DNA of 34,456 bases, taken from Candidatus Woesebacteria bacterium RBG_13_46_13. Its GTDB lineage: Bacteria; Patescibacteriota; Microgenomatia; UBA8517. Both the position numbers and the translations under genes were made by a program. Shown here piece after piece: positions 1-14,427 of this stretch. Positions within the stretch are counted from its first letter, which is position 1. Every line of letters starts with the position of its first letter. Location of the stretch: assembly GCA_001791995.1 (NCBI GenBank), contig MGFR01000002.1, positions 1-34,456 on the forward strand, written 5' to 3'. The notes under the pieces are model-generated. The model was not told the origin of the DNA. It worked only from the letters and a program-made list of their open reading frames with translations, and did no database searches.

Positions 1-1892
1 ACCGAATTGGCCAGTTCACCATTGGCCACACAACCCGTACAGGAAAGCTCCGATGCCGTTATCGTACCTGTTCCAGAGAAAGAAAGAGTGGCACCGCTAT
101 CCACGACCATTGCGGCTGTTGTGTTGTCGCCGGAGGTTAAATCTGCGAAAGAACCTCCACCACCTCCTCCGTCCAGCCCTTCCCAGGTGTTTCCTGCGTG
201 GCAGACTTTAACCGTATCGTCCGTGGCGTTATAGTAGATGTCTCCTTCGGCACAGGAGGCCGGGTCGGAGGTAGTGGATTTGCCCTTTAGGTTAAGAAAA
301 ACGTAGTCTCCCTGGTCTATAAAGGAAGCGAGCCTAGATGTTCCGTCCCCTATATTTACCGATGTGGCGTTTGCAGGGACCAGGCTTATAGAAGTGCCGG
401 AGAAGATATCTCCGCCGTTTATCGTTAGATCCCCGCTGGTCTTGATATTACCGCTCGAGGCTGTTTCGACATAGAAGTTTGCGGAAGAACTGTTTCCCCC
501 GATAGCCAAATTATACGAATTGATGGTCGGATGGATTACATCACCTGTTACCGTCCAGCTTCCGTTTCCGCTACTGCTACGGTTGTAGGCAGCATTGATG
601 GCGTCGACTATTCCTGTATTGCCGCCAGGTAGGGAGGTGGAAGATTCGCTTAACTTAATAGAAGAGGTAAGCTGGGCATCATTGAAAATGATATCGTCCT
701 TGGCAATAATACTTATATCTGCTCCTGATGCACTTGTTGTTATATTGAGTGATTTTGAGCTGGTTATGTCACCACCTCCAACCGAAATGTCTCCGCTGGT
801 GGCCAGGTTGTCATCCACAGTCAGAGTAGAGCCTGAAGCATTTGAGATCGCCCCTTCGATTTCAAAATTACCTTTGGAGTCCAAGTTGGCAACCTCGGTT
901 CCGTCGTTCTTGGCAGTTAAGATGTCGCTATCACCACTTCCTTCCAGCAAAATCAGAGATTTACCCCCGACCTCTCCGGAAACTTCAAGTCTGGCCTCCG
1001 GCGAGTTCGTGCCAATGCCTAGGAAGTAGTTGGTATTATCCCAGAAGAAATTCTTGTTGTTTTCAGATAGTCCCACTCCCTGGGGGCCCTTAAAAAGAAC
1101 CGAGCCCTCGGAGAGCCCGACATTAAAAATGGAAGCGAGATTTTCGATCTGGGAGATCTCGGAGGAGAGCTCGCTTCTGACACTTCTGGTGACTGTTCTA
1201 AGCTCTCTAACCTGATCGTAGGTCAACTTGGCAGCACCCAATATCAATAACAAAATGATAGCCAGTAGAACAAACGTAGTCACCTTGGATGAATCCCTGC
1301 GGGGTTTTGTGTCATAGATAATAGGGGCAACAGGCGCCGGGGGTAGGGGGGCAGGCTGGAAAACCGGCTGGGGCTGAGTTTGAACCGGAAGTTCCTGTTT
1401 AAAAGAAGGAGCTTCAATAACTACCGGAGCTTCGTAGACAACCTCGGGAGCAGGAGGCAGGGGTTGTGCTTGCGGTTGGGGGGTAGGGGCCACTACGGCT
1501 TGGGAAGCGGGTTGAGGAACAGTAGGCTTGGGAGCCTGTTCGGCTGCTTTGATGTTCTGGATATCCTTTGAGGTAAAGAGCCTGTGGCCTCCGGGAGTTC
1601 TGGCCGAGGTAATTTTTCCGTCTCTGTCCCAGCGTCTGATGGTTTGGGGGGAAACGTTTAAGAATCCGGCCGCTTCCTGGATCGTATAAGTCTTTTCGTT
1701 TAAGGCGGGTCTTTTAAGGATATCTTTTAAAAGGGTAATATCCTCAAGAGAGTAGAGTCTTTCGTTATTCGGACCCCTTTTGGGGACTACCTGCCTTTTT
1801 TTCTCCAAACGCCTTAAGGTATCGGAGGAAACCCCTAACAAACTAGAGGCCTTACTTATCGAAAACAAATTGTTATCGGCGGGCAGGGACAT
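1..1892 (-). CDS. Large membrane-anchored protein, partial (3' end runs off the window): two tandem MerR/Xis-like (HTH_17-type) DNA-binding domains, Pro-rich linker, single TM helix, Gly/Ser/Thr-rich fibre-like ectodomain
   Basis: Manually translated from ATG at 1892; open for 630 codons to the window edge, so absent from the ORF track. HTH1 FSISKASSLLGVSSDTLRRLEKKRQVVPKRGPNNERLYSLEDI; HTH2 YTIQEAAGFLNVSPQTIRRWDRDGKITSARTPGGHRLFTSKDI; TM VTTFVLLAIILLLILGAA (~1225-1285); ectodomain motifs FFWDNTNYFLGIGTNSP and CAEGDIYYNATDDTVKVC. Confidence 0.85.
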   Translation of the reverse strand, partial: MSLPADNNLFSISKASSLLGVSSDTLRRLEKKRQVVPKRGPNNERLYSLEDITLLKDILKRPALNEKTYTIQEAAGFLNVSPQTIRRWDRDGKITSARTPGGHRLFTSKDIQNIKAAEQAPKPTVPQPASQAVVAPTPQPQAQPLPPAPEVVYEAPVVIEAPSFKQELPVQTQPQPVFQPAPLPPAPVAPIIYDTKPRRDSSKVTTFVLLAIILLLILGAAKLTYDQVRELRTVTRSVRSELSSEISQIENLASIFNVGLSEGSVLFKGPQGVGLSENNKNFFWDNTNYFLGIGTNSPEARLEVSGEVGGKSLILLEGSGDSDILTAKNDGTEVANLDSKGNFEIEGAISNASGSTLTVDDNLATSGDISVGGGDITSSKSLNITTSASGADISIIAKDDIIFNDAQLTSSIKLSESSTSLPGGNTGIVDAINAAYNRSSSGNGSWTVTGDVIHPTINSYNLAIGGNSSSANFYVETASSGNIKTSGDLTINGGDIFSGTSISLVPANATSVNIGDGTSRLASFIDQGDYVFLNLKGKSTTSDPASCAEGDIYYNATDDTVKVCHAGNTWEGLDGGGGGGSFADLTSGDNTTAAMVVDSGATLSFSGTGTITASELSCTGCVANGELANS

Positions 1893-2006
1893 AGCTTATG
1901 CAAAATTTAGCTTCAAATGAACAACTTTGCGCAACATTAATTAAGGCAAATGCCGAAAGTGTTGTCAAGCCTGTTTTAGAAATCGACTAAGGGATAAAGT
2001 TTGCTG

Positions 2007-2035
2007 TTGATTATTTGCCGGGTTTCGCCTAAATT
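2007..2035 (+). promoter_or_regulatory. Putative sigma70 promoter for the M16 peptidase-ndk unit
   Basis: TTGATT-N17-TAAATT, 20 nt upstream of the ATG at 2056. Confidence 0.45.
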
Positions 2036-2055
2036 AAATGAAGATTTCTTAAAGT

Positions 2056-3333
2056 ATGGACTATAAACTGACCAAGCTGGCAAATGGGATCCGGGTGATA
2101 ACGGTTCCGGTAAAAAGCCTCGAATCCGCGACCCTGACCGTTTGGGTAGGAGTAGGCTCCAGGGCCGAGGAGGACAAAATCGCCGGCTTAAGCCACTTCC
2201 TGGAGCACATGGTCTTTAAGGGTAGCAAAAAACGCCCTTCGGCAAAACAAATCGCTGAGGCGGTGGACGCCATCGGAGGGGAATTTAACGCTTCAACCTC
2301 CAAAGAATGGACCAATTTCTATATTAAGGCCAGATCAGGGAATCTGGATTTGGCTTTCGACGTACTCTCGGACATGGTTTTAAACCCGCTTTTGAAAGCG
2401 GAGGAGATTGAAAAGGAAAAGGGCGTAATCGTTGAAGAGATTGCGATGTACGAAGATACACCCATGATGAAGATAGGGGACGTCTTCGAGCAGCTTATTT
2501 TTAAAGGAGATAATCTGGGGAGAGATACGATAGGCACGGAAAAAAGCGTAAAGTCTTTGAAAAAAGATGATTTCGAAAGATATAGAAATATACATTACTA
2601 TACTGATAATATAGTTATTACCGCTGCTGGAGGGATAGAAGAGAAAAAAGTACTTTCCCTGGCGGAGAAATACTTTTCTGGGCTTAAAAGAACGGGTAAA
2701 CAGGAAGAGGCAAACTACAACTTCAAGCCAAGCCAGAGAACCCCCCAAGTTTTACTGCGTTCCAAAAAGAACGAGCAGGCGCATTTGATAATGGGTTTTT
2801 TGGCGTCGCAAAGGGGAGGCAGGGAAAGGTTTACGGAGGCAGTTCTGGCTGCCATTTTGGGAGGAGGCATGAGTTCCCGGTTATTTACCGAGGTTAGGGA
2901 AAAAAGAGGATTGGCCTATTCGGTAAAAACATCGACTGAGCGCTACCTGGATACCGGAGAATTTGCCTCATACGCCGGAGTGGATGTTCCGAAAGCGGAG
3001 GAGGCCATAAAAGTAATACTGGATGAGCATTACGGTTTGGCCGACGGGAAGAAGAAAGTAACCGAGAAGGAATTAAAGATAGCAAAGGAATATATCAAAG
3101 GGCATCTTGCGCTATCATTGGAAGATACGCGGGATGTCAACTCCTTTTTCGGGGAAGAGGAATTAATGTTAGGCAGAGTCGAGACTCCGGAGCAGGTTTT
3201 CGCGGGTATAGACAGGGTTAGCATTGAAGATATCCAGATGCGAGCCAAAGAGCTATTTGTGCCCAAAAGGCTTAATCTGGCAATAATCGGACCATTTAAG
3301 GACCAGGCGGCTTTCGAAAGGATTGTCGGCTAA
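2056..3333 (+). CDS. M16 family (insulinase/pitrilysin-like) zinc peptidase
   Basis: Inverted zinc motif HFLEH (HXXEH), GGEFNAST, C-terminal ILGGGMSSRLFTEVREKRGLAYSV; 425 aa. Confidence 0.93.
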   Translation: MDYKLTKLANGIRVITVPVKSLESATLTVWVGVGSRAEEDKIAGLSHFLEHMVFKGSKKRPSAKQIAEAVDAIGGEFNASTSKEWTNFYIKARSGNLDLAFDVLSDMVLNPLLKAEEIEKEKGVIVEEIAMYEDTPMMKIGDVFEQLIFKGDNLGRDTIGTEKSVKSLKKDDFERYRNIHYYTDNIVITAAGGIEEKKVLSLAEKYFSGLKRTGKQEEANYNFKPSQRTPQVLLRSKKNEQAHLIMGFLASQRGGRERFTEAVLAAILGGGMSSRLFTEVREKRGLAYSVKTSTERYLDTGEFASYAGVDVPKAEEAIKVILDEHYGLADGKKKVTEKELKIAKEYIKGHLALSLEDTRDVNSFFGEEELMLGRVETPEQVFAGIDRVSIEDIQMRAKELFVPKRLNLAIIGPFKDQAAFERIVG

Positions 3334-3334
3334 C

Positions 3335-3883
3335 ATGGAGCAAACTGTAGTTCTGATTAAGCCGGACGGAGTCAAAAAGTCCATCATGGGAGACGTTTTG
3401 TCGCGTTTTGAGAGGGTTGGCTTGAAGTTGGTGGCGGCAAAGCTGATCTGGGTCAATAAGACCATGGTTGGAAAGCACTATCCCTACGACAGTAAGTATC
3501 TTAAGTCTGTAGGGGAGAAAACCCTTGAGAATTACAGCAAGTACGGAATGGACCCCGGAGAGAACCTGGGTACCAAAGACCCCTTTAAGATAGGAGAGAT
3601 GGTCAGGGAGTGGAATATGGAGTTTCTCTCCTCCGGCCCGGTTTTTGCCATGCTTCTGGAAGGCCCGAGTGCCGTGATGATTGTCAGGAAGATCGTAGGT
3701 CATACCTTTCCCTCCGAGGCTATGCCGGGTACAATCAGAGGGGATTTTTCCCTGGATTCCGCCTACGACAGCAACCTGCAAAAAAGAACAACCCGGAACA
3801 TAATCCACGCTTCGGGATCGGTAAAAGAGGCCAAATTCGAGAAGAAACTCTGGTTTAAGCGAGGCGAAATTTACTCCTACTAG
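3335..3883 (+). CDS. ndk: Nucleoside-diphosphate kinase
   Basis: EQTVVLIKPDGV, PGTIRGDF, RNIIHASGS (catalytic His). ATG 3335 chosen over the TTG at 3323. Confidence 0.95.
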   Translation: MEQTVVLIKPDGVKKSIMGDVLSRFERVGLKLVAAKLIWVNKTMVGKHYPYDSKYLKSVGEKTLENYSKYGMDPGENLGTKDPFKIGEMVREWNMEFLSSGPVFAMLLEGPSAVMIVRKIVGHTFPSEAMPGTIRGDFSLDSAYDSNLQKRTTRNIIHASGSVKEAKFEKKLWFKRGEIYSY

Positions 3884-4383
3884 GCTCCCAAAGGGATTTC
3901 AGCAAGATGTTCCCACTCTTGCGGATTTTGGGTCGCGGGTGTCACGATAATCTTATCGGCCAAAAACTCCAACCTGGGCAGATTTATGCTTTTTGCGATG
4001 TTTTTCCTTTGTCCGATATCGTCGTTTCCATAATAGAGGCTAATATGGGGCATAAAGACGGTTGTGTCGTTGAATGTTTTTTGGGCAAAAGATCTGGCCG
4101 TAAGTAGGGAAGTGCCTGTTTGAACACGCACAAAGACACACTGGAAATAGGTGGTTGAGAAGTCGATTTGGCCCAAAGATACCTGAAATGGCTTAATCTG
4201 TTTGGCCAAAAGACCAGCTTTTGCAACTATTTCGTCAATCTCGCCATAAATGGGACCGAGAAGGGTCATGTGGGGTTCAAAGGTCGGCCCGTGGAACTTA
4301 GCGCTTAAATCTTTGACCGAAGAGTCAAGCGTGGCTTTTGCTTCGCCGTTGGGGGTAATCCATAAAGAATAGGCTTTTTCCAT
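3880..4383 (-). CDS. 2H phosphoesterase / cyclic phosphodiesterase (CPDase-like)
   Basis: YSLW at the N-terminus and two Hx[TS] motifs (FEPHMTL, FMPHISLYYG) about 80 aa apart. Confidence 0.85.
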   Translation of the reverse strand: MEKAYSLWITPNGEAKATLDSSVKDLSAKFHGPTFEPHMTLLGPIYGEIDEIVAKAGLLAKQIKPFQVSLGQIDFSTTYFQCVFVRVQTGTSLLTARSFAQKTFNDTTVFMPHISLYYGNDDIGQRKNIAKSINLPRLEFLADKIIVTPATQNPQEWEHLAEIPLGA

Positions 4384-4393
4384 GCTTCGTTTG

Positions 4394-4465
4394 TCGGGGT
4401 GCTGGGAATTGAACCCAGTGCCTCTCGGACCCGAACCGAGCGGTCTACCGATGACCTACACCCCG
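4394..4465 (-). tRNA. tRNA-Pro (anticodon CGG), CCA not encoded
   Basis: Cloverleaf: acceptor CGGGGTG/CACCCCG, D arm GGTC/GACC, anticodon arm CTCGG-TTCGGGT-CCGAG, T arm CTGGG-TTCAATT-CCCAG. Confidence 0.95.
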
Positions 4466-4468
4466 GGA

Positions 4469-4543
4469 TGGTGCCCCTAGCCGGAATTGAACCGACATCT
4501 TACCCTTAGGACGGGTCTGCTCTGTCCGTTGAGCTACAGGGGC
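4469..4543 (-). tRNA. tRNA-Arg (anticodon CCT), CCA encoded
   Basis: Acceptor GCCCCTG/TAGGGGC, D arm GCTC/GAGC, anticodon arm (G)ACCC-GTCCTAA-GGGT(A), T arm GTCGG-TTCAATT-CCGGC, ends ACCA. Confidence 0.92.
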
Positions 4544-4551
4544 GCATGGAA

Positions 4552-4560
4552 ATTATACCA
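4552..4560 (-). promoter_or_regulatory. Extended -10 promoter for the tRNA pair
   Basis: TG-G-TATAAT on the minus strand, 8 nt upstream of the tRNA-Arg 5' end. Confidence 0.7.
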
Positions 4561-4570
4561 CAAGCCTTAC

Positions 4571-5740
4571 CTACTTCAGGCTAAGGGAATAAAGATTAGC
4601 GAGGCTATCGCCGGAGCCCAGATTGGTCAATATCAGAAGTTTACTGGTATTTACATATGGGAAAGCCTTCGGTGCAGTATAGCTTCCCGAATAGACGGCC
4701 TGGCGGTTGGTGCCGTCGTAATCCATGATGGTTACCTTGCCTTCTTCGGGGTAGACCAGCTGTCTTGAAGTAGGGAACCAGCGAATCATAGCTCCAGCCT
4801 CGGCAACCAAGAAATTTCGATCCTCTTTGATATCGTAAACATAGGTTTTACCTTCTTCGATATTCCTTTCTTGTTTTTGGGTAGAAGAGCCCGGTAAGGA
4901 CTTTATTAGTCCTTCTTTTAAGCTGGCCGAGCCGCTGGCCGTATAAAGAATCTTGGTTTCATCGGGCGAGAAGACAACCGAGCTGGCTTTTCTGGTAAGG
5001 ACATCCGCCAGTTCCTCCGGTAGGCTGGAAAGCTGGGCCGTGAGCTTCTTTTTCTCCTCGGTTTTCCAGCCCAAAACTATACTTTCCTTTCTGGAGCTGA
5101 CATTTACCGTCTGATTTTGGGAGGTAAAACTTCCGGTTTCCAGAAGGTAAACTCCGCCTTTGGTCGTAAGCATAATCTGCCTGGCATCAGGAGAGAATTC
5201 CCAGGAAGCTTCGGTCAAATCTCCGTCACTAATCCGTCTGGGATCTCGGGAAAACCCTAAAGGAAGGTCGGCTGTCTCCACTATCCAAAGGCCGGCCTTG
5301 GGGTCTCCGGCGGTCTTGGGAGGTACGGCGAAGGCTATTTTGGAATAATCGGCTGAATCGACCGGATTTACGGCGCCGTCGAAGGTCACGGCTGTCAAAG
5401 AAGGGGCAATCCTAAACAGGGTAACGTTGGCCAAGGTGACCACTTCTTTTTCAATAGACAGGCGCTTACCCCACTCGATATAGCCTTCTTTTCTCAGGCT
5501 GATATCGTAGGTCCCCGGGGAGAGGGAAACTGTGGCGTCGCTGGCGGTTTTTAAGTCCCCGTTGACGAAGATTTGGGCCCCGGTCGGGTCGGATTTGACC
5601 ACCAAAAGGCCGTTGGGGCTAAAGCGAAAATGCCTCAAATCAAACCTATATCCCCGTGCGTAGGCAACGGCGAATGTTCCAAAAGTGACCATCACAAAGA
5701 TGGTGAAAAGAAAAATCAAAAGTCTGACCTTCGTCATCAT
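4571..5740 (-). CDS. PEGA domain-containing membrane-anchored protein with probable beta-propeller C-terminus
   Basis: N-terminal TM, then GLLVVKSDPTGAQIFVNG...LSPGTYDISLRKEGYIEW (PEGA); repeated WEFSPD/FSPDETKILY/WFPTSRQLVY motifs. Start set at ATG 5740 (MMTKV); the ORF-track extension to 5890 overlaps mreB. Confidence 0.8.
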   Translation of the reverse strand: MMTKVRLLIFLFTIFVMVTFGTFAVAYARGYRFDLRHFRFSPNGLLVVKSDPTGAQIFVNGDLKTASDATVSLSPGTYDISLRKEGYIEWGKRLSIEKEVVTLANVTLFRIAPSLTAVTFDGAVNPVDSADYSKIAFAVPPKTAGDPKAGLWIVETADLPLGFSRDPRRISDGDLTEASWEFSPDARQIMLTTKGGVYLLETGSFTSQNQTVNVSSRKESIVLGWKTEEKKKLTAQLSSLPEELADVLTRKASSVVFSPDETKILYTASGSASLKEGLIKSLPGSSTQKQERNIEEGKTYVYDIKEDRNFLVAEAGAMIRWFPTSRQLVYPEEGKVTIMDYDGTNRQAVYSGSYTAPKAFPYVNTSKLLILTNLGSGDSLANLYSLSLK

Positions 5741-5747
5741 GAGGCCA

Positions 5748-5792
5748 ATTATACGCTTACCTCTTGTTAGGCGCAAAAAATGCCCATATAAT
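5748..5792. promoter_or_regulatory. Divergent -10 elements (PEGA gene and mreB)
   Basis: TATAAT on minus at 5748-5753, 7 nt before ATG 5740; TATAAT on plus at 5787-5792. Confidence 0.55.
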
Positions 5793-5811
5793 GCGTCCAA
5801 TCCCCTAAACC

Positions 5812-6819
5812 ATGCTACGCAAAAACATCGCGATTGATCTCGGCACCGCCAATACCCTGGTTTGGATCGCCGGAGAAGGTTTGGTCGCAAATGAGCCTAC
5901 GGTGGTGGCCATTTCTTCCGACGACAATAAGGTTGTTGCGGTCGGGGAAGACGCCAAAAGAATGCTGGGCAGGACCCCTGAAAGCCTGATTGCCTCCCGG
6001 CCCATGCGCGAGGGGGTAATTGCGGATTATCAGATAACCGAGGCCATGCTGCGCTACTTCATCGGCAAGGTTACGGGAAGATTCCAGATATTTAAACCCA
6101 ATGTCATGGTCTGCGTGCCGGCAGGCTGTACCCAGGTTGAGCGTAGGGCCGCGCTTGATGCTACTCTGGGGGCAGGAGCAGGGCATGCCTACCTTATAGA
6201 CGAACCGCTGGCCGCAGCCATCGGAGCGGGTATTCCGGTTTCGGCACCATCTGGGCATATGATCGTGGATGTTGGCGGTGGAGCAGCCGAGGCTGCCGTT
6301 ATCTCCCTGGGGGGAGTCGTGGTGCATAAGAGCGTGCGCATCGCCGGCAACAAGGTCGACGAGGCTCTGCAGAACTATTTGAAGAAGAAATATAACCTGA
6401 TTGTGGGTGATACCACGGCGGAGGATATCAAAATCAAGATCGGTTCAGCCACAATACTGGCCAAAGACGAAAAGTTGGAGATATCTGGCCGGGATTTGGT
6501 CTTTGGGCTCCCCAGAAGCGTTGTGGTGACCTCAACCGACGTTACAGAGGCGATAAGGCCCACTCTTCTTTCCATAATCGGAGCGGTGAAAGCGGTTTTG
6601 GAGGACACGCCACCGGAGCTGGCAGCTGATATTATAGATAAGGGAATTGTCATGAGTGGGGGAACGAGTCTCTTGCGGAACTTTGATAAAATGTTAACAG
6701 AAGAAACCGGCGTTCCGGCCCATGTCGCGGAGGACGCCATGTACTGTGTGGTTAGGGGAACCGGTTTGGTGTTGGAAAATATAGAACTTTGGAAGAGAAG
6801 TGTCACGACTAAAAGATAA
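5812..6819 (+). CDS. mreB: Rod shape-determining actin homolog MreB/Mbl
   Basis: IAIDLGTANT, EPTVVA, RPMREGVIAD, LIDEPLAAAIGAG, VDVGGG, GIVMSGGTSLL. Confidence 0.96.
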   Translation: MLRKNIAIDLGTANTLVWIAGEGLVANEPTVVAISSDDNKVVAVGEDAKRMLGRTPESLIASRPMREGVIADYQITEAMLRYFIGKVTGRFQIFKPNVMVCVPAGCTQVERRAALDATLGAGAGHAYLIDEPLAAAIGAGIPVSAPSGHMIVDVGGGAAEAAVISLGGVVVHKSVRIAGNKVDEALQNYLKKKYNLIVGDTTAEDIKIKIGSATILAKDEKLEISGRDLVFGLPRSVVVTSTDVTEAIRPTLLSIIGAVKAVLEDTPPELAADIIDKGIVMSGGTSLLRNFDKMLTEETGVPAHVAEDAMYCVVRGTGLVLENIELWKRSVTTKR

Positions 6820-6944
6820 CCCCTATAGGGCATATAACACGAGGTGCCAGAGACCCCGGAAACAAAAGAATCGGATTATACAAGATACCGATTTACTGCT
6901 ACTATAGGGCAGGAAAAGAAGTTATATAGTATAGGACCAATAAA

Positions 6945-6975
6945 GCGGGATAAAGTGAGGATAGATTGAGGATAA
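6945..6975 (+). repeat. Three 11-bp-phased GGATA[AG] direct repeats in an AT-rich intergenic region
   Basis: GCGGGATAA (6945), TGAGGATAG (6956), TGAGGATAA (6967). Confidence 0.4.
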
Positions 6976-7245
6976 TTCAACAATTTATGAGGCCAATAAA
7001 CGAGGTAATATTTTATACAAAGTGTGTGTTATCGTAAGTGCATAATTGTATTAATAGAACCTGTAATATAAAGTATACGAAATCACATTAAGTCCTAGAG
7101 TCATGATAGCTGGTTAATTAGTCGTAAGTAGGTTATAGGTCTATAAAAACATCTTTTTGGACGAATTCGGCGATAAAAAAATAGGCTTTTTTCTAAAAAA
7201 ACGGAGCCCGAAGCCCAAAAAACCGACAAAGATTGGTACAAATCA

Positions 7246-8010
7246 ATGCGAAAATACGGCAAAATATTGACCACTGACCTAAATAGCACTTCCAAGGAGA
7301 AAGTGCTAGCCTTTGTAAGGGATTCTTTGGCCCGAGGCTACAAATTTTGGATTTCCACCCCCAATTCGGAGATAATTTTACAGGCAGAGAAAGACTTCGG
7401 ACTGCATAAAGCTCTGCAAAATTCAGACCTGGCAATACCGGACACAATCGGGGTAGGTCTTGCCGCCAGGTTTTTGGGATTAGGGGAGATAAACATCATT
7501 AAGGGTCGCGAGTTGTTTATGGAGATAATTAAACTTGCCAGTAAAAAGGGCTGGAAAGTATTCCTTCTGGGAGGAGGACCCGATATTGCCAAGGTTGCTG
7601 GACTTAACCTGAGGAAAAGTTTTAAAAAGGTAAGAATTGCCTATAACGAGGGACCGCGTCTTAACGCGGCGGGTGAGCCGGTTTCCCAAACGGATGTCGG
7701 CTTGGAAAAGAAGGCGATCGCCGAAATCAACGAATTTGCCCCCCAGATCCTATTTGTAGCCTTTGGTGCTCCAAAGCAGGAAAAATGGGTGGTACGAAAC
7801 CTCAAGCGACTAAACATTGGTGGAGCCATGGTTGTCGGGGGAACGCTTGATTATGTTGCCGGAAAAGCACCCTTGCCCCCCAAAGGCTTGGAGAAGAGCT
7901 TTGAGTGGTTATGGCGGCTTGTTACCCAACCCGCAAGAGCCCCGAGGATTATAAGAGCCACAATCGTTTTTCCCTGGAGAGTATTTCTTTCCAAGTGGAA
8001 TAAGGCCTAA
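7246..8010 (+). CDS. WecB/TagA/CpsF family glycosyltransferase (GT26)
   Basis: ISTPNSE, IPDTIGV, KGRELF, VFLLGG, FVAFGAPKQEKW, VVGGTLDY, EWLWRL...R. Confidence 0.93.
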   Translation: MRKYGKILTTDLNSTSKEKVLAFVRDSLARGYKFWISTPNSEIILQAEKDFGLHKALQNSDLAIPDTIGVGLAARFLGLGEINIIKGRELFMEIIKLASKKGWKVFLLGGGPDIAKVAGLNLRKSFKKVRIAYNEGPRLNAAGEPVSQTDVGLEKKAIAEINEFAPQILFVAFGAPKQEKWVVRNLKRLNIGGAMVVGGTLDYVAGKAPLPPKGLEKSFEWLWRLVTQPARAPRIIRATIVFPWRVFLSKWNKA

Positions 8011-8017
8011 ATGGCCC

Positions 8018-8046
8018 TTGACACCCCTGATACCCTCTGATATTTT
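8018..8046 (+). promoter_or_regulatory. Sigma70 promoter of the small HTH gene
   Basis: TTGACA (8018-8023), 17-nt spacer ending TG-A, TATTTT (8041-8046). Confidence 0.65.
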
Positions 8047-8052
8047 CTGATT
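8027..8052 (+). repeat. Three CTGAT[AT] direct repeats at exactly 10-bp period overlapping the promoter
   Basis: CTGATA 8027, CTGATA 8037, CTGATT 8047. Confidence 0.6.
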
Positions 8053-8054
8053 AA

Positions 8055-8085
8055 GATAGTTCGAACTCAAGCTCGGAACTATATC
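8055..8085 (+). promoter_or_regulatory. Inverted repeat (5'UTR hairpin or operator)
   Basis: ATAGTTC (8056-8062) ... GAACTAT (8076-8082); stem extendable with one G-U pair. Contains the perfect palindrome AGTTCGAACT (8058-8067). Confidence 0.5.
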
Positions 8086-8112
8086 ATTTGAAGTCAAATT
8101 AGATTAAACAAT

Positions 8113-8331
8113 ATGGACGAGAAGCCTAAAAAGAAAGTCAGACTCGAAGATTTGCCGGATTTACTCACCGTGCGTGAAGTTTCCGATCTGCTACGTGTTT
8201 CTCCTTTGACTATCAAGCGCTGGGGCAAAAGAGGCAAGCTCCCCGCCATCAGGATTAACTCCCGCGGCGACCGCAGATATAAAAAAGAAGCCGTCCTCTG
8301 GCTTCTAGGCATGCAGGAAAAGACCGAATAG
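8113..8331 (+). CDS. Small stand-alone MerR/Xis-like (BldC-like, HTH_17) DNA-binding protein
   Basis: 72 aa: LLTVREVSDLLRVSPLTIKRWGKRGKLPAIRINSRGDRRY; no effector domain. Confidence 0.9.
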   Translation: MDEKPKKKVRLEDLPDLLTVREVSDLLRVSPLTIKRWGKRGKLPAIRINSRGDRRYKKEAVLWLLGMQEKTE

Positions 8332-8361
8332 CTTCAGAGTTTTCTGATACAATGTGGGCGT

Positions 8362-9642
8362 ATGAGATTCGTCAGTGGCTTGATAGGATTTATCCGTAGG
8401 TACAGCGTACTTTTTGTGCTGGTATCGATTTTCTTGATTAAAACCCCACCTTTCTACCTTTTTCCACCCATAAAGAGTTCTCTTCTAACCACCCACACCC
8501 TTTCCCGTCTTTTTATTCTTTTGGCCTTTGCTGGAATTTATTGGGAGGAGATAAGAGAGAAGGCTAAGCCTTTAGGGCAGAATGCAAAACTGCTTTTATG
8601 GTTCTTTGTCGTTTATCTTATTTTTCAATCTCTTTCTCTCGTCGGAGCCTCAAATGTCATCGGCTTCCTGCAAAGATATAAAGATGTTGTGTTTCCGGGC
8701 CTTCTTTTGTTTGTGGTTGTGGCCAGGAGGATAAAAAGAGAAAAAGTAGTTCTAATATTCCTTCTGGCGGCCAGTGTGAATTTTGTTTACCAGATGATAA
8801 TGTTTTTCTTACCCCACATCTTTAGAAGCTGGGGGAACGAATTGGTTTACTCCGGTCATTTAGAATTGGTTCTTATCAATCTCGAAAGAGGCCGGATGTT
8901 TATAGAAACGTACGATGAGATAGCAATACCGTTTATATTTTTTCTCCTTGCCAAGCATAACGGTAGGTGGGCACGGATAGGCTTGATTGCCATCTTTTTG
9001 ATGGTCGCGCTGCCCAGCTTTCTTTCCAACTTCCGCTCGCGTGCGGGAATACTTATCATTGCATTTTTAGCCTCTTTTCTCTTTTTGACGGGCCGGAAAA
9101 TTAAAGAGAAGATTGTCCTTGTGTGTCTTTTCCTGTTCTTGGCCATGACCGCGGTTATCGTTTCGAATACATTCTTCGGCTTTTCGGTGGTGGACAGATT
9201 TGCTCTTAGGGATACCCGGGAAGATGTGGAAACTCTTCTGTATCGGGCCGAAAACATCGGAACCTCTGTTGATATGGGAATTTCCCAGCCGCTAACGGGG
9301 ATAGGTTTGGGCAACTATTTTGATAACCTGGCTACGAGTAAAAAAATGAGCAAATCCCTTTTTAACTGGGTTCAGAGAGAGGCCGAGATTGCATCAACTA
9401 ATCCCCACGACATTTTTTTGCAAACCCTTTCGGAGACTGGAGTATTAAGCTTAATTTTCGTAATTATGCTTTTAGGGTACTTTGCTTATTCAGATATTAT
9501 TGCTCTAAAGTCTAAGGATTATTTGACCAAGGCTCTTATTATTGCCTTTTGGACACTTTTCTCGTATTCACTTTTTAATCCCACAACCACCCTGGGTTAT
9601 AACTCACTATTTTGGCTTTTACGGGGACTAATTATTTTATGA
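8362..9642 (+). CDS. O-antigen ligase/O-oligosaccharyltransferase-like (Wzy_C) membrane protein, type A copy 1
   Basis: Multi-TM; SNFRSRAG; loop R...I...MGISQPLTGIGLGNY; NPHDIFLQTLSETG. Paralog of 21950-23257. Confidence 0.85.
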   Translation: MRFVSGLIGFIRRYSVLFVLVSIFLIKTPPFYLFPPIKSSLLTTHTLSRLFILLAFAGIYWEEIREKAKPLGQNAKLLLWFFVVYLIFQSLSLVGASNVIGFLQRYKDVVFPGLLLFVVVARRIKREKVVLIFLLAASVNFVYQMIMFFLPHIFRSWGNELVYSGHLELVLINLERGRMFIETYDEIAIPFIFFLLAKHNGRWARIGLIAIFLMVALPSFLSNFRSRAGILIIAFLASFLFLTGRKIKEKIVLVCLFLFLAMTAVIVSNTFFGFSVVDRFALRDTREDVETLLYRAENIGTSVDMGISQPLTGIGLGNYFDNLATSKKMSKSLFNWVQREAEIASTNPHDIFLQTLSETGVLSLIFVIMLLGYFAYSDIIALKSKDYLTKALIIAFWTLFSYSLFNPTTTLGYNSLFWLLRGLIIL

Positions 9643-10628
9643 GAGTCATTATCGACGGGCACATGCTGGGCAGGAACGAGGGCGGTAACGAACGCTATGT
9701 AAAAGGGATAATTAAAGGCTTATCTCCCCTTAAAAATATTAAAACAAGAATTTACAGGAGCCACACCAGGGGTGTAGTCGCGGATCTTAAACGCGTATTT
9801 ATCGATTTACCGCGCCAGGCAGAAGGGTTTAGGGCCGACATTGTTCACGCAACCTACATCGGTCCTCTTTGGGGAAGAGGAAGACTGGTCTTGACGGTTC
9901 ATGACTTTCTTTTCAGGCGGAATCCCGAATTTTTCTCCCTCAAAGAGCAGCTGGTGTTTGGCCTGCTTCTTCCGTTATGTTTGAAACGTACCTCGGCGGT
10001 AATTGTGCCGTCGAATTTTGTCAAAAAGGAAGCCGTAAAATTCTACCCTTGGCTTAAAAATAAGGTTTTCGTGACTTACGAGGCAGCCGACGGAGTTTTT
10101 TCGTATAAACGGTCTAAAAAAGCCCGGAAGCCTTATCTTCTTGCCTTCAACAGTAAAAACCCCAAGAAGAATATCGCCAGGGTAATCGCTGCTTATGGGA
10201 TAGTTCAAAAAAGCCTTCCCCAGACGGAATTGTTGGTCGTCGGGCCCCGCGTGGCCGCAGGAGAAGGTGTGACTTTCGTAGAAAATGTCGGTGAGCGCAA
10301 GTTGGCGCAGCTATACCACGGATGCGAGTGTCTGGTTTATTTCTCGCTATACGAAGGCTTCGGCTTACCCATTCTTGAGGCTTTCATTGGAGGAGTGGCC
10401 GTCGTTGCCTCGGATATCCCCGTTCACCGGGAAATTGCCGGGAACGCAGCCCTTTTCGCAAAACCGAAAAACCCTCAAGATTTGGCGGATAAGATCATTA
10501 AATTATTAGGCAACCCTTCTCTGAAGGCAAAGCTGGTTCGAAAAGGAAGAGAAAGAGCGGCCACCTTTAGTTGGGAAAAAACCGGCAAGGAGACGGCAGC
10601 AATTTACAGGAGGGTTCTTAAGCCATGA
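9639..10628 (+). CDS. Glycosyltransferase family 4 (mannosyltransferase-like)
   Basis: MRVIIDGH, LTVHD, SLYEGFGLPILEA, VASDIPVHREIAG, FSWEKT. ATG overlaps the upstream TGA (ATGA). Confidence 0.92.
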   Translation: MRVIIDGHMLGRNEGGNERYVKGIIKGLSPLKNIKTRIYRSHTRGVVADLKRVFIDLPRQAEGFRADIVHATYIGPLWGRGRLVLTVHDFLFRRNPEFFSLKEQLVFGLLLPLCLKRTSAVIVPSNFVKKEAVKFYPWLKNKVFVTYEAADGVFSYKRSKKARKPYLLAFNSKNPKKNIARVIAAYGIVQKSLPQTELLVVGPRVAAGEGVTFVENVGERKLAQLYHGCECLVYFSLYEGFGLPILEAFIGGVAVVASDIPVHREIAGNAALFAKPKNPQDLADKIIKLLGNPSLKAKLVRKGRERAATFSWEKTGKETAAIYRRVLKP

Positions 10629-11725
10629 GAATTGCCATCATTGGGGTCCGCGGTGTCCCCGTCATCTATAGCGGCTTTGAGACGCTGGCAGAGAAGCTCT
10701 CCGTGGGTCTGGTAAGAAAGGGGCACAGTTTAACCGTCTATTCGAGAAGGGGCTATGTCAACCCCGAGAGAAGCTCTTACAAAGGGGTAAAAATAATTAC
10801 TCTTCCTGCCCCCGGAGGCAAAAACTGGGAAACTTTTGTGCACAGCCTCGCTTCGACCTTGCACGCCTGTATTAAGGGGAAATATGAGCTTATTTACTTT
10901 GTCGGGGTAGGCAGCACAATTTTTAGTATTTTACCCAGGATTTTGGGCATAAAAACCGTGGTCAATGTCGACGGACTGGATTGGCGTAGGGAAAAGTGGG
11001 GGCCAGTCGGGAAGGTTTATTTGGCTTTTTCGGAAGTTCTGGCCTGCTTTCTTCCCAACAGGGTTATTACCGACTCCTTATATATAAAGAGGTATTACCG
11101 CAGAAAATACGGGAAAGAAACCGTTTATCTGCCTTACGGCTTCGAACCTTATACGGGTAAAAACAGGCAAATACTGGCCAGGCTAGGACTTTCCGCGGGA
11201 AAATATATTGTCTGGGTGGGTCGGCTGGTGCCGGATAACCATACGGATGAGCTTATTAGGGCATTTAAGAGCCTTGAGACCCCCTTGAAATGTGTTGTCG
11301 TGGGAGATGATCGGCTAAACGGTGGATATAAGCGGAAAATTAAAAATCTTGCCGGGGGTGAGGCTCGCATCATCTTTACAGGCTTTTTGGACAGGGAGAA
11401 GTATTCGGCTTTGGTTAAAAACGCTTTGTGTTATGTGGAGACCAAGCGCTCCGGAGGGACCCATCCCTCCTTGGTCGAGGCGATGGGCTTTGGGACTTTG
11501 GTTATCTCGAATAGCCATTCGGCAAACAGAGAAGTTGCGGGGGCCGGAGCGATTTATTACCAGAAGGGATCGGTCAAAAGTTTAGTCAAGGCGGTAAAGG
11601 TGGCCGTTAAAGGGCGGGGTACGGCCAAACTTCGGAAGATTAGCCTGAACATTGCCAAAAGCAGATATTCTTGGACTCCAATAATTAGGGCATACGAAGA
11701 TCTGTTCAGCAGCCTTACTGGATAG
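10625..11725 (+). CDS. Glycosyltransferase family 4 (DUF1972/Cps2T-WchF-like N-terminus)
   Basis: MRIAIIGVRGVPVIYSGFETLAE, NVDGLDWRREKW, VGRLVPDN, GGTHPSLVEAM, YSW. Confidence 0.9.
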   Translation: MRIAIIGVRGVPVIYSGFETLAEKLSVGLVRKGHSLTVYSRRGYVNPERSSYKGVKIITLPAPGGKNWETFVHSLASTLHACIKGKYELIYFVGVGSTIFSILPRILGIKTVVNVDGLDWRREKWGPVGKVYLAFSEVLACFLPNRVITDSLYIKRYYRRKYGKETVYLPYGFEPYTGKNRQILARLGLSAGKYIVWVGRLVPDNHTDELIRAFKSLETPLKCVVVGDDRLNGGYKRKIKNLAGGEARIIFTGFLDREKYSALVKNALCYVETKRSGGTHPSLVEAMGFGTLVISNSHSANREVAGAGAIYYQKGSVKSLVKAVKVAVKGRGTAKLRKISLNIAKSRYSWTPIIRAYEDLFSSLTG

Positions 11726-12527
11726 AACCGATGACGAAGTCTTGGAAGTTGAAATTGGGTGTCCAAATTTCCAGGAAGGAGCCGCTGTTTAAGAGCTTAA
11801 GTTCCCCGAAATAGAAGGCCCCGTCCCTCTTCAGTGCTTTAATTTTGGCCTTTACGCTAATATACCTGACGGAATCTAAGGTTCCCGCATTGAAATTTCC
11901 GTAATAGTCATTTTCAATGACCGAAGTCGCTTTTTGGTTCTTGGAAACTACTTCAAAAACCACATTTTCACCGTCAAAATATTTATCGCCTATCTTTATC
12001 GCGTCATACTCCCAGGGGTAGGCATACTTTTTGGTTAGATAAACCGTTTTTTCCACATATTCATCGTTGAACGGCTCTTTGGATATTTCCATAATGGTTC
12101 CCGTAATCAGAGTTTTGTTGGTCTCAATTTCGATGGGTGTTCCGACAACCAAACTCGAACGCTTGAACGAATATTTTTGGCTCTTGTCGTTGTAGCTAGC
12201 CGAAAGCTTAACTGTTAAGAATATATCGTACTTGTTATCGGGGCGGGTTTTGTCGAATGAAGGGTAATAGCGAACCGAAGCTATTTGCGCAACCGGCTGT
12301 CCCAAGAGCGAGTATTCGGTATCATCCTTGGCGATTGCCCGTAAAAAGTAGGCATCGGGCCTTGAGGTTACTGACCACCAGAGACCTTGGGAAACCTGCA
12401 TTTTAATATAGACGACCCGGTTATTTGGCTTGGCAAGTTTTAATAAAGCGAAGAGGACAATAAGAGCAGGAATCAAGACCAGAAAAACGAGCAGCAGGGG
12501 TAGGGCTTTCTTTCTTTTCGCCGACAT
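11715..12527 (-). CDS. Membrane-anchored hypothetical protein (DUF4330-like), copy 1
   Basis: Basic N-terminus plus TM; two internally similar beta-rich halves. Clear paralog of 23208-24011 (QGLWW, VRYYP, YDIFLTVKL, VGTPIE, FNFQDF). DUF label is by resemblance only. Confidence 0.65.
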   Translation of the reverse strand: MSAKRKKALPLLLVFLVLIPALIVLFALLKLAKPNNRVVYIKMQVSQGLWWSVTSRPDAYFLRAIAKDDTEYSLLGQPVAQIASVRYYPSFDKTRPDNKYDIFLTVKLSASYNDKSQKYSFKRSSLVVGTPIEIETNKTLITGTIMEISKEPFNDEYVEKTVYLTKKYAYPWEYDAIKIGDKYFDGENVVFEVVSKNQKATSVIENDYYGNFNAGTLDSVRYISVKAKIKALKRDGAFYFGELKLLNSGSFLEIWTPNFNFQDFVIGSIQ

Positions 12528-12562
12528 ATTGCTATGATAGTCTATAGCAGAAAAGGCCGCAA

Positions 12563-13639
12563 ATGAAAATCGTCAGACACTTCGCGATTATTTTTACAAC
12601 AATTATCCTTTTCTTGGGAGGGATTGGTTACAATCTTCTGCCTGTAGAAATAATAGCGGTACTCATCTCTTGTTATCTCTGCCTTCTGGCTGCAGTTGGC
12701 AACAAAAGATTTCTTTTACCTAAGGGTTTTGGAGTATTTGTCCTTTTCTTAGCTGCCCTGGTGGCTCATTCGTATTGGGAAGAAAAAATCCTCGTTACGA
12801 ATTATTTCATCATGTATTTGGCTGGGGGATTGTTTTGGATAGCCTTTTATAACCTTAGGTCTTATTTCGAGAAATATTACGGCTTAATGATTGTTTTACT
12901 GGCAATTGCCTTCGGGTTTTTATTTTTTTTGTTCGCAAAAGGAGGCGATATCGGAACCTGGAGCCTGTTCTTAACCTCCTCAACCTACAAGAACCATAAC
13001 CACATCGGAGATATCTGGGCTTTAACGCTTGCGGTAATTTTCTATACATCTCTTAATAAGGCAAAACTTTGGCATTTCCTTTTAGGATTGGTGGGAGTGT
13101 ATCTGATGGCAATTTCCCTATCCCGTTCAGCCTATGCCGCGCTTTTTGCTGGCGTTATTTTTGTAGCCTTCAGAAAGGGATGGATTAAAAAAGCCAGATA
13201 TGTTTCTTTGGCTACCCTGACAGTCTGTGCTGCGCTTTTGGTTTATGCCGGAACCCAAAAGACAACCTTGTTTGCACGACCTTACTATATTCAAGCCGTC
13301 GTTGGCTTTTTAAGGAATCCCTTAGGGGTAGGGATGGGTAATTTCAGCATTATCTCTGCGGATCCAATAAATCACCTGCTGGGTTTTAAAGATTTCGCCG
13401 GTTTTACCCACAATATCGTTCTTGAAGTTCTGGTTGGTTTGGGAATTTTCTCTCTCCCTTTCATCATCTGGTTCTTTCTCGTCTGCAGGAGCGTCTGGCA
13501 GAAATCTAAAACCAGGCTGTTCTCTTCAATGATATTCGTAGTGCTCTCGGTAAACCTGTTGCTTGACAGTACTTATAATATTCCTACAATGTTATGGCTT
13601 TGGTTTATGTCCATCGGGCTTGCCCAGGCGGAAGAATGA
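12563..13639 (+). CDS. O-antigen ligase-like (Wzy_C) membrane protein, type B copy 1
   Basis: Multi-TM; NHNHIGD, SLSRSA, RPYY...NPLGVGMGNF, THNIVLE. Paralog of 29916-30980. Confidence 0.82.
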   Translation: MKIVRHFAIIFTTIILFLGGIGYNLLPVEIIAVLISCYLCLLAAVGNKRFLLPKGFGVFVLFLAALVAHSYWEEKILVTNYFIMYLAGGLFWIAFYNLRSYFEKYYGLMIVLLAIAFGFLFFLFAKGGDIGTWSLFLTSSTYKNHNHIGDIWALTLAVIFYTSLNKAKLWHFLLGLVGVYLMAISLSRSAYAALFAGVIFVAFRKGWIKKARYVSLATLTVCAALLVYAGTQKTTLFARPYYIQAVVGFLRNPLGVGMGNFSIISADPINHLLGFKDFAGFTHNIVLEVLVGLGIFSLPFIIWFFLVCRSVWQKSKTRLFSSMIFVVLSVNLLLDSTYNIPTMLWLWFMSIGLAQAEE

Positions 13640-14427
13640 AGGTTGATAAAGAATATTTTCTGAGCCAGGCGGGGTTTAGTGTCAGGGTGGTTTTTAAACC
13701 CACCGAGTTCGGCTACGCACAGAAAGTGCTGATTTCTTCCTTTCAAAAAGCTTGGGCTGGTTTTCTTTCCCGCCGTTCAAAAAAGGTTGATTTTACGGTT
13801 GTTGTTTCTTCGGACGCGGGAGATAAAGAAATCCTGGTCAGGGGGGGCAGGCGATATTATTACCTGACCTATACGCGTGATTTTGCGCACGGCAAAATCG
13901 ACACCTACTACACGGTTAACCTCAGGGGACTGGACCTTCTTTTTAGGGAGATATTTGCCTTTCTTATTCGCAAGGACGGCTTTTTGCTGCACGCATCAAG
14001 CGTGGTGGACAGAAAAGGAGCACTCTCCGTTTTTATGGCCCGTTCGGGAGGGGGAAAGACCACAACAGCCAGTCTTTATAAGGGTGGAGGCTATTATAAA
14101 TTTGGCGACGACATTATTCTTGTCAGGAAAATGTCTGGACGTTGGAAATTTTTCAGCCCCCCTTTTATTGAGAAAAACGAGATTCCTCGTAAAAACCAAG
14201 CTTCGAGGGCAAAGTTTTATGTAGTCAAAAAGGCGCTCAAACCCAACCTTGCTCTTATAAAGGAAAAGAAAGTTCTGCTTCCTTTTTTGCTTGGACAAAT
14301 ATGGCTAAACCGTGGTACTTTAGAAAAACCGGTATTAAAGACCGCTTTATTGTTCCTGATGGAAAACAACTTCTCTGAACTTGGGGTAGTCCTTAACGGT
14401 AGAAAGATGCGAAAGATTATCAAATGA
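13636..14427 (+). CDS. HPr kinase-related P-loop kinase (putative peptide kinase)
   Basis: GFLLHASSV, Walker A ARSGGGKTT, KFGDDIILVR. Start at ATGA overlap 13636; immediately upstream of PqqD. Confidence 0.78.
   Translation: MKVDKEYFLSQAGFSVRVVFKPTEFGYAQKVLISSFQKAWAGFLSRRSKKVDFTVVVSSDAGDKEILVRGGRRYYYLTYTRDFAHGKIDTYYTVNLRGLDLLFREIFAFLIRKDGFLLHASSVVDRKGALSVFMARSGGGKTTTASLYKGGGYYKFGDDIILVRKMSGRWKFFSPPFIEKNEIPRKNQASRAKFYVVKKALKPNLALIKEKKVLLPFLLGQIWLNRGTLEKPVLKTALLFLMENNFSELGVVLNGRKMRKIIK

Follow-up and report, generated by a model that had tools for sequence, protein, structure and literature searches.

What does a bacterium gain from a DNA-binding head on a giant surface fibre, and what DNA could such a head bind? 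These questions are raised by a gene at the left edge of contig MGFR01000002.1 of Candidatus Woesebacteria bacterium RBG_13_46_13, from which we analysed a stretch of 34,456 nucleotides (positions 1 to 34,456; the window). This organism belongs to the candidate phyla radiation (CPR, Patescibacteria), which accounts for a large share of bacterial diversity and has tiny genomes with few recognisable regulators. A dependence on contact with other cells is assumed for CPR bacteria, whose largest genes encode surface proteins of unknown function. The gene in the window encodes the start of such a protein, beginning with two helix-turn-helix (HTH) domains. We propose, at what we judge to be even chances, that this protein is a giant fibre fixed in the membrane by a signal anchor and that its BldC-like head, on the cytoplasmic side, binds the promoter/leader of its own gene, which would make the protein a membrane-tethered regulator.

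Results

The gene encodes an HTH head, a linker, one membrane helix and a fibre

The gene lies on the minus strand. Its reading frame (1892..3) starts with ATG, spans 630 codons and is free of stop codons up to the window edge, where an assembly break truncates it. No start earlier than the ATG at 1892 is possible, since a TAA closes the frame 6 nt before it, and the orthologs share the starting residues of the window protein. Open reading frames (ORFs) on the plus strand that overlie the gene are antisense artefacts. A first-pass annotation of positions 1-1892 had described a giant protein with two MerR/Xis-type HTHs, a Pro-rich linker, one transmembrane (TM) helix and a fibre-like ectodomain. 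This layout was borne out, with the correction that the gene runs from right to left; the cytoplasmic side of the head is an assignment that we infer. The motifs that the annotation had cited were all present (WDNTNYFLGIGTNSP at residues 284-298, CAEGDIYYN...VC at 547-564 and CTGCV at 618-622). The coordinates of the features are collected in Table 1.

The head resembles BldC and keeps its DNA contacts

The limits of the two HTH domains were set by a custom hidden Markov model (HMM) built from the domains. Both domains lie in stretches that match the Pfam families MerR (74.6 bits, cut-off 28.2), MerR_1 (69.2 bits, cut-off 21.6) and HTH_17 (49.8 bits, cut-off 27), two stretches for each family. 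No Pfam match to Trans_reg_C, the OmpR/PhoB-type winged helix, was found in the window protein, and the head is of the MerR type. The protein scored far below the cut-offs of the equivalog models of classical MerR regulators (MerR, CueR, BmrR and SoxR) and of the RacA profile models, the winged helix being the only feature in common with RacA. There is no MerR coiled-coil dimerisation or effector domain; HTH2 runs straight into the Pro-rich linker and then the TM helix. The NCBIfam model of BldC (NF033787) gave 47.5 bits against a cut-off of 77, the domain here being embedded in a chain of 630 or more residues instead of standing alone.

BldC was also the closest known structure. By sequence, the nearest solved structures were the BldC-DNA complexes 6AMK and 6AMA (E 2e-7), followed by CarH, NmlR and RacA. 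AlphaFold2 (AF2) predicted residues 1-125 as two beta-alpha-alpha-beta-beta-alpha units, with a predicted local distance difference test score (pLDDT) of 74 overall and mostly 70-85 in the units. Foldseek placed BldC first (6AMA/6AMK, template modelling score 0.79-0.83, root mean square deviation 1.3-1.6 Å, 38-39% identity), and next came RacA, NmlR, CarH and TnrA/GlnR; DNA is bound in the majority of these structures, and the deviation was 1.3-1.6 Å for BldC, RacA and NmlR alike. A fixed packing of HTH1 against HTH2 was rejected, as the predicted template modelling score (pTM) was 0.40 and the two domains had no defined mutual arrangement without DNA.

The DNA contacts of BldC allowed the two domains to be compared residue by residue. 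BldC R30 makes a specific guanine contact, K26 touches bases, T27, T29, K33 and W31 contact phosphates, and H46, R47 and R48 lie in the minor groove; DNA binding is essentially lost in the R30A, H46E and G44E mutants (PMC5859096). We collected relatives by a HMMER search of 1.8 billion representative proteins, and our family counts refer to the 150 best relatives plus the fetched loci. Heads with a single HTH keep R30, W31, G44 and R47 in all 16 cases and H46 in 13. The second domain of tandem heads is almost as well kept, with R30 in 34 of 36, W31 in 33, G44 in 31, R47 in 35 and H46 in 20, the last being Gln in nine others. The first domain of tandem heads retains T27 (36/36) and R30 (33/36), but has Leu for W31 in 20 of the 36 and Glu, Gln or Lys for H46. 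HTH1 of the window protein follows this pattern, keeping T25, R28 and R45 but carrying L29 and E44. These comparisons suggest that HTH2 looks like a competent BldC-type DNA binder, the one of the two domains that appears fully competent, and that HTH1 is more like a diverged partner, with a wing that has probably ceased to reach into the minor groove. Compared with four orthologs, HTH1 is 65-84% identical, HTH2 55-78% and the linker 15-49%. Both HTHs are under purifying selection (55-84% identity versus 15-49% for the linker).

A second small MerR-like head is encoded elsewhere in the window, as a stand-alone Xis/HTH_17-like protein of 70-80 residues (8092-8331, plus strand; custom HTH HMM, E 3e-9). 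In its promoter (8018-8052), TTGACA is overlapped by three copies of CTGAT(A/T) at exact 10-bp spacing, so that this protein has phased direct repeats at its own promoter.

The window protein belongs to a large family with exchangeable heads

The HTH was present in 81 sequences of the family. One or two N-terminal HTHs followed by a linker, a TM helix and an ectodomain were seen in 54 of these, with a median of 56 residues between HTH and TM helix (range 19-103). The longest members with a detected TM helix have about 5,600 residues; P0036 (6172 residues) has the head and no TM helix at the hydropathy threshold used. Complete relatives with a single HTH reach about 5,590 (L014) and 4,490 (L015) residues from their likely start codons, and many short members are probably fragments at contig ends. 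The window protein is a truncated but typical tandem-head member of this family. The first-pass annotation had guessed that the architecture is common but uncharacterised in the lineage; these 54 sequences agree with that guess, since databases call such proteins only 'MerR regulator' or 'excisionase'. For example, HLE49108.1 (4670 residues, Patescibacteria) is named 'MerR family DNA-binding transcriptional regulator' and others 'excisionase family DNA binding protein'. A full-text literature search found no paper describing an HTH head, a TM helix and a giant fibre in one protein.

Complete syntenic orthologs have 2948, 4594, 1496 and 1660 residues, which supports the description of the protein as giant, and the window carries about the N-terminal fifth of a surface fibre, several thousand residues long, of a Woesebacteria/Microgenomates bacterium. 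The HMMER search gave 58% identity over residues 1-630 for P0010 (2948 residues) and 47% identity to the window protein for P0011 (4594 residues). Both loci have the neighbours of the window, with an M16 peptidase and a nucleoside-diphosphate kinase gene divergent upstream and an arginyl-tRNA synthetase gene downstream, and this housekeeping neighbourhood is kept around the fibre gene in at least six loci. Thus, the head and the genomic position are conserved among orthologs, while the ectodomain differs threefold in length (1496-4594 residues). The final 365 or so residues are 45% identical between P0010 and P0011, and the P0011 ectodomain contains a Laminin_G_3 lectin-type domain. A gene for a DUF1003 membrane protein directly follows the fibre gene at L018 (15303-15866) and L021 (5843-6427), and not at L017 and L020.

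Giant fibre relatives without this HTH mostly start with another small domain, again followed by a TM helix. The head is a Phage_int_SAM core-binding domain in L001, P0021, P0046 and P0059 (E 1e-6 to 6e-15), and a shorter, sub-threshold SAM-like segment in about ten further relatives. Others have MerR_1- or HTH_17-like heads of other types, and some carry plain signal peptides instead of heads. At L025, a 165-residue Phage_int_SAM protein (99-596) is encoded 4 nt upstream of a giant fibre gene (601-13806; 4401 residues) that itself begins with a short SAM-like head and a TM helix, a split or duplicated head. Upstream of the SAM-head fibre gene at L001, positions 118-3671 encode three secreted or membrane proteins (504, 337 and 326 residues) that look like an assembly set for a surface structure. 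The same HTH type also occurs in arrays, with 14 tandem copies and no TM helix in P0016 (1015 residues) and eight copies before a TM helix at residue 501 or so in P0018 (623 residues). These arrays look architectural, as in DNA coating or tethering, and not regulatory.

The fibre gene is broken at contig ends in independent assemblies (the window and the metagenome contigs L005, L006, L007 and L008). Public-run contigs from this kind of sample reach a coverage of only 3-5x over the gene; one Logan contig (runs X2/X3) matches window positions 1-896 and runs 464 nt past position 1. Besides this coverage, the breaks may be due in part to repeats within the fibre or to variation between strains. 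At L005 (2687-2732), the orthologous gene is present as two ORFs that overlap by 46 nt (487 and at least 408 residues); this is either a frameshift by assembly error or a real break, and it yields a false 'excisionase family' gene.

The promoter/leader is conserved and its motif follows the head type

The DNA directly upstream of the gene is conserved to an unusual extent. The 76 nt from the -35 hexamer TTGACA to the ATG are collinear, with zero indels, in seven distinct syntenic loci, and show a mean pairwise identity of 79% (minimum 70%) with 40 of 76 columns invariant. For comparison, identity is 39% at third codon positions and 75% at codon positions 1 and 2 of the adjoining HTH1, and 42% in the 60 nt further upstream; the intergenic half that adjoins the peptidase gene cannot be aligned among these loci. 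Within the block, CAAAGTTGTTCATT is invariant in five of the seven loci and occurs once in the window, and no second copy of the leader core was found elsewhere in its 34 kb.

A canonical sigma-70 promoter was rejected: despite the perfect, conserved TTGACA, no canonical -10 was found at 16-18 nt. On the minus strand of 1937-1968, the A/T-rich TTAATTAAT begins 18 nt past the -35, and the best -10-like hexamers lie at 19-21 nt. This distance recalls the long spacers of MerR-type promoters, as a resemblance only. The predicted RNA folds of four leaders were not better than those of shuffled sequences (z +0.4 to -1.8), and the leader matches no Rfam family. On these grounds, and because the arms of an inverted repeat were lost in two loci, an RNA element, hairpin or long palindrome was rejected for the tandem-head subfamily. 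What is left in all seven loci is three 9-10-bp units, A(A/T)NTNNNNC, which begin A/T-rich and have C as their ninth base.

Genes with single-HTH heads have a different motif, a TGGACA/TGTCCA pair at -57 to -21 in five of six independent loci. At L009, L010, L011 and L015 the two hexamers stand 18-20 bp apart between promoter and ATG, at L023 TGTCCAAGATTAA is followed immediately by the near-identical TGTCTAAGATTAA, and L014 has one half-site. The optimised BldC site is CAATTCGGACA (PMC5859096), and the GGAC core of the single-HTH motif is also contained in it. Neither hexamer was found in the eight tandem-head and three SAM-head leaders examined, and the SAM-head genes L001 and L024 share a further, different conserved promoter. 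Thus, the leader motif follows the type of head, since TGGACA/TGTCCA is present in single-HTH leaders and missing from tandem- and SAM-head leaders. Autoregulation predicts such a head-dependent motif, whereas a promoter element common to giant genes in general does not.

The head is predicted to be cytoplasmic and the fibre external

The window protein has a single hydrophobic segment at about residues 203-225 (KVTTFVLLAIILLLILGAAKL, Kyte-Doolittle 2.48) and no N-terminal signal peptide, and about 200 residues of folded domains and linker precede this helix. Family-wide, Lys and Arg are more frequent on the N-terminal than on the C-terminal side of the TM helix (3.24 versus 2.24; 35 versus 13 proteins; Wilcoxon p = 2e-4). 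In other proteins, modules homologous to the ectodomain sit behind ordinary cleaved signal peptides. Because of these three observations, we favour a topology in which the head is cytoplasmic and the fibre is outside. The end of the helix, G-A-A before Lys (window 1218-1232, minus strand; given as residues 218-222), resembles a signal-peptidase site; small-x-small motifs at the outer end are also found in orthologs, as SLG (L007/L008) and TVA (P0002), and not in all of them.

The ectodomain has modules in common with giant CPR proteins and tail-fibre-like proteins

Modules homologous to the window ectodomain occur in giant CPR proteins, and the two-cysteine module is the best-predicted part of it (AF2 pLDDT about 78-81). 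AF2 gave no fold support for the ectodomain as a whole (15-row alignment, pLDDT 58, pTM 0.25), and a PDB sequence search with it found no match. The term fibre-like is supported by composition, by motifs shared with tail-fibre-like proteins and by the size of the relatives. The resemblance to phage tail fibres that the first-pass annotation had pointed to holds for a short motif, NFFWDxxNxxLGIGT, which is shared with proteins ending in Peptidase_S74. It does not extend beyond this motif, as no PHROG family matched the ectodomain at E <= 0.01. The C-terminal S74 chaperone or Hint domain that had been suggested is lacking: S74 (PF13884), Hint and Peptidase_G2 were absent from the complete orthologs P0010 and P0011 even at E <= 1, and the C-terminus of the window protein itself lies beyond the edge. 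PF13884 was also absent from the complete single-HTH relatives L014 and L015. The only C-terminal matches were weak, namely K1-lyase_C in L014, below the cut-off, and H_lectin (E 0.28). The former covers the C-terminal 70 or so residues of L014 (about 17960-18166) and corresponds to the C-terminal domain of the phage K1 capsule lyase tailspike (PF24146, E 1e-4, 23.1 bits, cut-off 27); by eye, the C-terminus of L015 is like that of L014.

Table 1. Features of the fibre gene and its leader in the window
Feature	Residues	Position	Strand	Remarks
Conserved promoter/leader block, candidate operator region		1893..1968	-	TTGACA (1963-1968) to ATG; contains CAAAGTTGTTCATT at 1916-1929
5' part of giant membrane-anchored fibre gene		3..1892	-	630 codons; 3' end lost at window/contig edge
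HTH1	8-62	1707..1871	-	MerR/BldC-type winged helix, diverged wing (L29 for BldC W31, E44 for BldC H46)
HTH2	66-120	1533..1697	-	BldC-like winged helix keeping T84, R87, W88, G101, H103, R104
Pro/Gln/Ala/Val-rich linker	121-202	1287..1532	-	28% Pro; 15-49% identity between orthologs
Single TM/signal-anchor helix (predicted)	203-225	1218..1286	-	Ends G-A-A (small-x-small) before K
Start of extracellular fibre (predicted)	226-630 (405 residues)	3..1217	-	45% S/G/T/N
GSVLF...NFFWDNTNYFLGIGTNSPEARL module	263-302	987..1106	-	Shared with tail-fibre-like proteins, some ending in Peptidase_S74
Two-cysteine module DPASCAEGDIYYNATDDTVKVCHAGNTWEGL	540-575	168..275	-	59-63% identity to modules in other giant Patescibacteria proteins

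Discussion

Based on these results, we propose a model that addresses how the fibre is placed in the membrane, how its head would reach DNA and which DNA it would bind. We believe that the fibre enters the membrane as a signal-anchored protein of type II (N-in). Its 200 N-terminal residues would remain cytoplasmic, the lone hydrophobic helix would engage the Sec machinery, and the S/G/T/N-rich fibre would be threaded to the outside. The head would then consist of two BldC-like winged helices about five residues apart, hung from the membrane by an 80-residue Pro-rich tether. CPR cells are a few hundred nanometres across, and because of this small size and the length of the tether, the head should be able to reach the chromosome. 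We propose that the tethered head binds DNA in the manner of ToxR/CadC-type transmembrane regulators, most likely starting with the conserved 76-nt promoter/leader upstream of its own coding sequence. In this way, fibre synthesis would feed back, positively or negatively, onto fibre transcription.

Each half of this model has a precedent. The best match to HTH2 in sequence and structure is Streptomyces BldC (6AMK, 6AMA; PMC5859096), likewise a minimal MerR-like winged helix with no coiled coil or effector domain, whose R30, W31, H46 and R47 contacts are conserved in HTH2. On DNA, BldC forms head-to-tail multimers along 9-bp direct repeats (PMC5859096), an arrangement that the two covalently linked heads of the fibre protein would imitate. 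However, BldC is a free cytoplasmic protein of 68 residues, whereas the fibre protein has two fused copies, a membrane helix and thousands of extracellular residues. The precedent for the membrane half is ToxR, TcpP and CadC, in which a DNA-binding domain at the cytoplasmic N-terminus is joined through one TM helix to a C-terminal part outside the cytoplasm; they are believed to act on their target DNA while in the membrane (PMC10269533). As in these regulators, a DNA-binding-type domain and a TM helix stand on the same polypeptide in the window protein. Classical ToxR and CadC differ in having an OmpR/PhoB-type winged helix and a periplasmic sensor of 100-300 residues, whereas the fibre family has a MerR/BldC head and a fibre of 1,300-5,400 residues. 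The main text of a survey of transmembrane regulators mentions neither MerR nor Patescibacteria (PMC10269533).

Several observations weigh against this model. E44 of HTH1 is at the very position where H46E abolishes binding by BldC, and L29 replaces W31. The positive-inside rule is not followed by the TM flanks of the window protein itself (three versus four Lys/Arg), and signal peptidase may part the fibre from the head at G-A-A. Within the leader, the 8-bp arms of an inverted repeat (GCAAAGTT/AAATTTTGC) are found in four loci and lost in L020 and L021. The resemblance of the three remaining units to the BldC half-site AATTNNNNC and its 9-bp phasing is weak and was noticed post hoc. Another regulator could bind the leader, or the leader could be a promoter or translation element. 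Fewer than 20 loci underlie the association between head type and motif, the window contains only part of the gene so that its giant size cannot be seen there, and none of the RNA runs searched contain the stretch.

Four other explanations were considered. The head may chiefly control other genes and serve as a sensor of fibre state or contact, with assembly, pull, shedding or regulated proteolysis of the fibre changing its activity by a logic like that of CadC or of anti-sigma factors and Notch. The layout is that of the ToxR/CadC-type regulators (PMC10269533), clustering of the ectodomain could gate DNA binding by single heads that lack a dimerisation domain, and the Laminin_G_3 domain of one ortholog is of a lectin type. 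However, the leader core has no second copy in the 34-kb window, no conserved protease is found in the neighbourhood, and an ectodomain that varies so widely in length and content (1496-4594 residues) is a better fit to a structural or adhesive payload than to a tuned sensor. We consider such a sensor unlikely. The heads may instead be an architectural tether between DNA and membrane, pinning the nucleoid, or their own locus during co-transcriptional translation and export. The model for this is Bacillus subtilis RacA (PDB 5I44), a MerR-like winged helix that attaches DNA to a membrane-associated site, and its DNA-binding domain is among the closest structures to the head; unlike the fibre protein, RacA is a soluble coiled-coil protein that depends on DivIVA for its contact with the membrane and has no TM helix or extracellular part. 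A tether would also suit the architectural look of the eightfold array before the TM helix of P0018 and the fourteenfold array of P0016, as well as the swapping of MerR, Xis-like and integrase SAM-like heads, which have only the ability to bind DNA in common. However, a generic tether needs no conserved, head-dependent leader at its own gene, although such a leader would fit a tether that acts on its own locus. We regard a tether as rather unlikely.

The head may also be a long pro-region before a cleavable export signal. The helix would be cut at G-A-A and the HTH head left as a membrane stub, possibly counting exported fibres and possibly with no DNA function. Small-x-small motifs at the outer end of the helix, as GAA before K here, SLG in L007/L008 and TVA in P0002, would allow such a cut. 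The hydrophobic core of 18-19 residues with no polar c-region is nevertheless typical of anchors, the motif is not kept in P0011 (LSA, with Leu at -3), and the strong conservation of DNA-contact residues argues for a working head. We find this explanation improbable. Finally, a chromosomal phage or prophage tail-fibre gene was considered, since NFFWDxxNxxLGIGT is common to tail-fibre-like proteins, some with a terminal Peptidase_S74, and the HTH type is common in phage excisionases. The window fibre also has the repetitive, S/G/T/N-rich character of S74 tail fibres and tailspikes, in which the motif marks the start of a segment. However, its complete orthologs have neither S74 nor Hint, the ectodomain has no PHROG match, the M16 peptidase, kinase and synthetase genes surround it in at least six chromosomal loci, and an N-terminal membrane anchor is not a feature of tail fibres. 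A prophage origin was rejected on these grounds and seems barely conceivable.

A broader version of our model, which we put forward as speculation with a rather small chance of being right, is that a whole class of CPR fibres is wired to the chromosome. Interchangeable heads (single or tandem BldC-like, Xis-like or integrase SAM-like) would each read a cognate operator in the leader of their own gene. The head would emerge first from the ribosome, and a gene of this size would take minutes to transcribe and translate. For these reasons, a co-translational action in cis is conceivable, in which the head silences or pins the very gene copy that encodes it. A second possibility is that the fibre assembles, comes under tension, is shed or is cleaved on meeting another cell and that this alters head clustering and so switches transcription, which would make the fibre a one-protein 'touch-to-transcription' device with a logic comparable to that of Notch.

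Transmembrane regulators are a known class; what is new is a MerR/BldC-type head on a giant fibre. Also new here is a conserved promoter/leader block with a motif that differs by head type, which suggests control of the fibre gene itself before any other target. Our hypothesis can be put to a direct test with the material in hand, a soluble head of 125 residues and a 76-bp block of conserved DNA. For annotation, our results mean that databases give the name 'MerR family transcriptional regulator' or 'excisionase' to fibres of 3,000-4,700 residues and that assemblies routinely break in their genes, leaving small false 'regulator' genes. If the model is correct, it would extend the ToxR type of regulation from the membrane to proteins that are tenfold larger and have a different head. 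And if the heads do work, these fibres would be a major, overlooked part of gene regulation in CPR bacteria.

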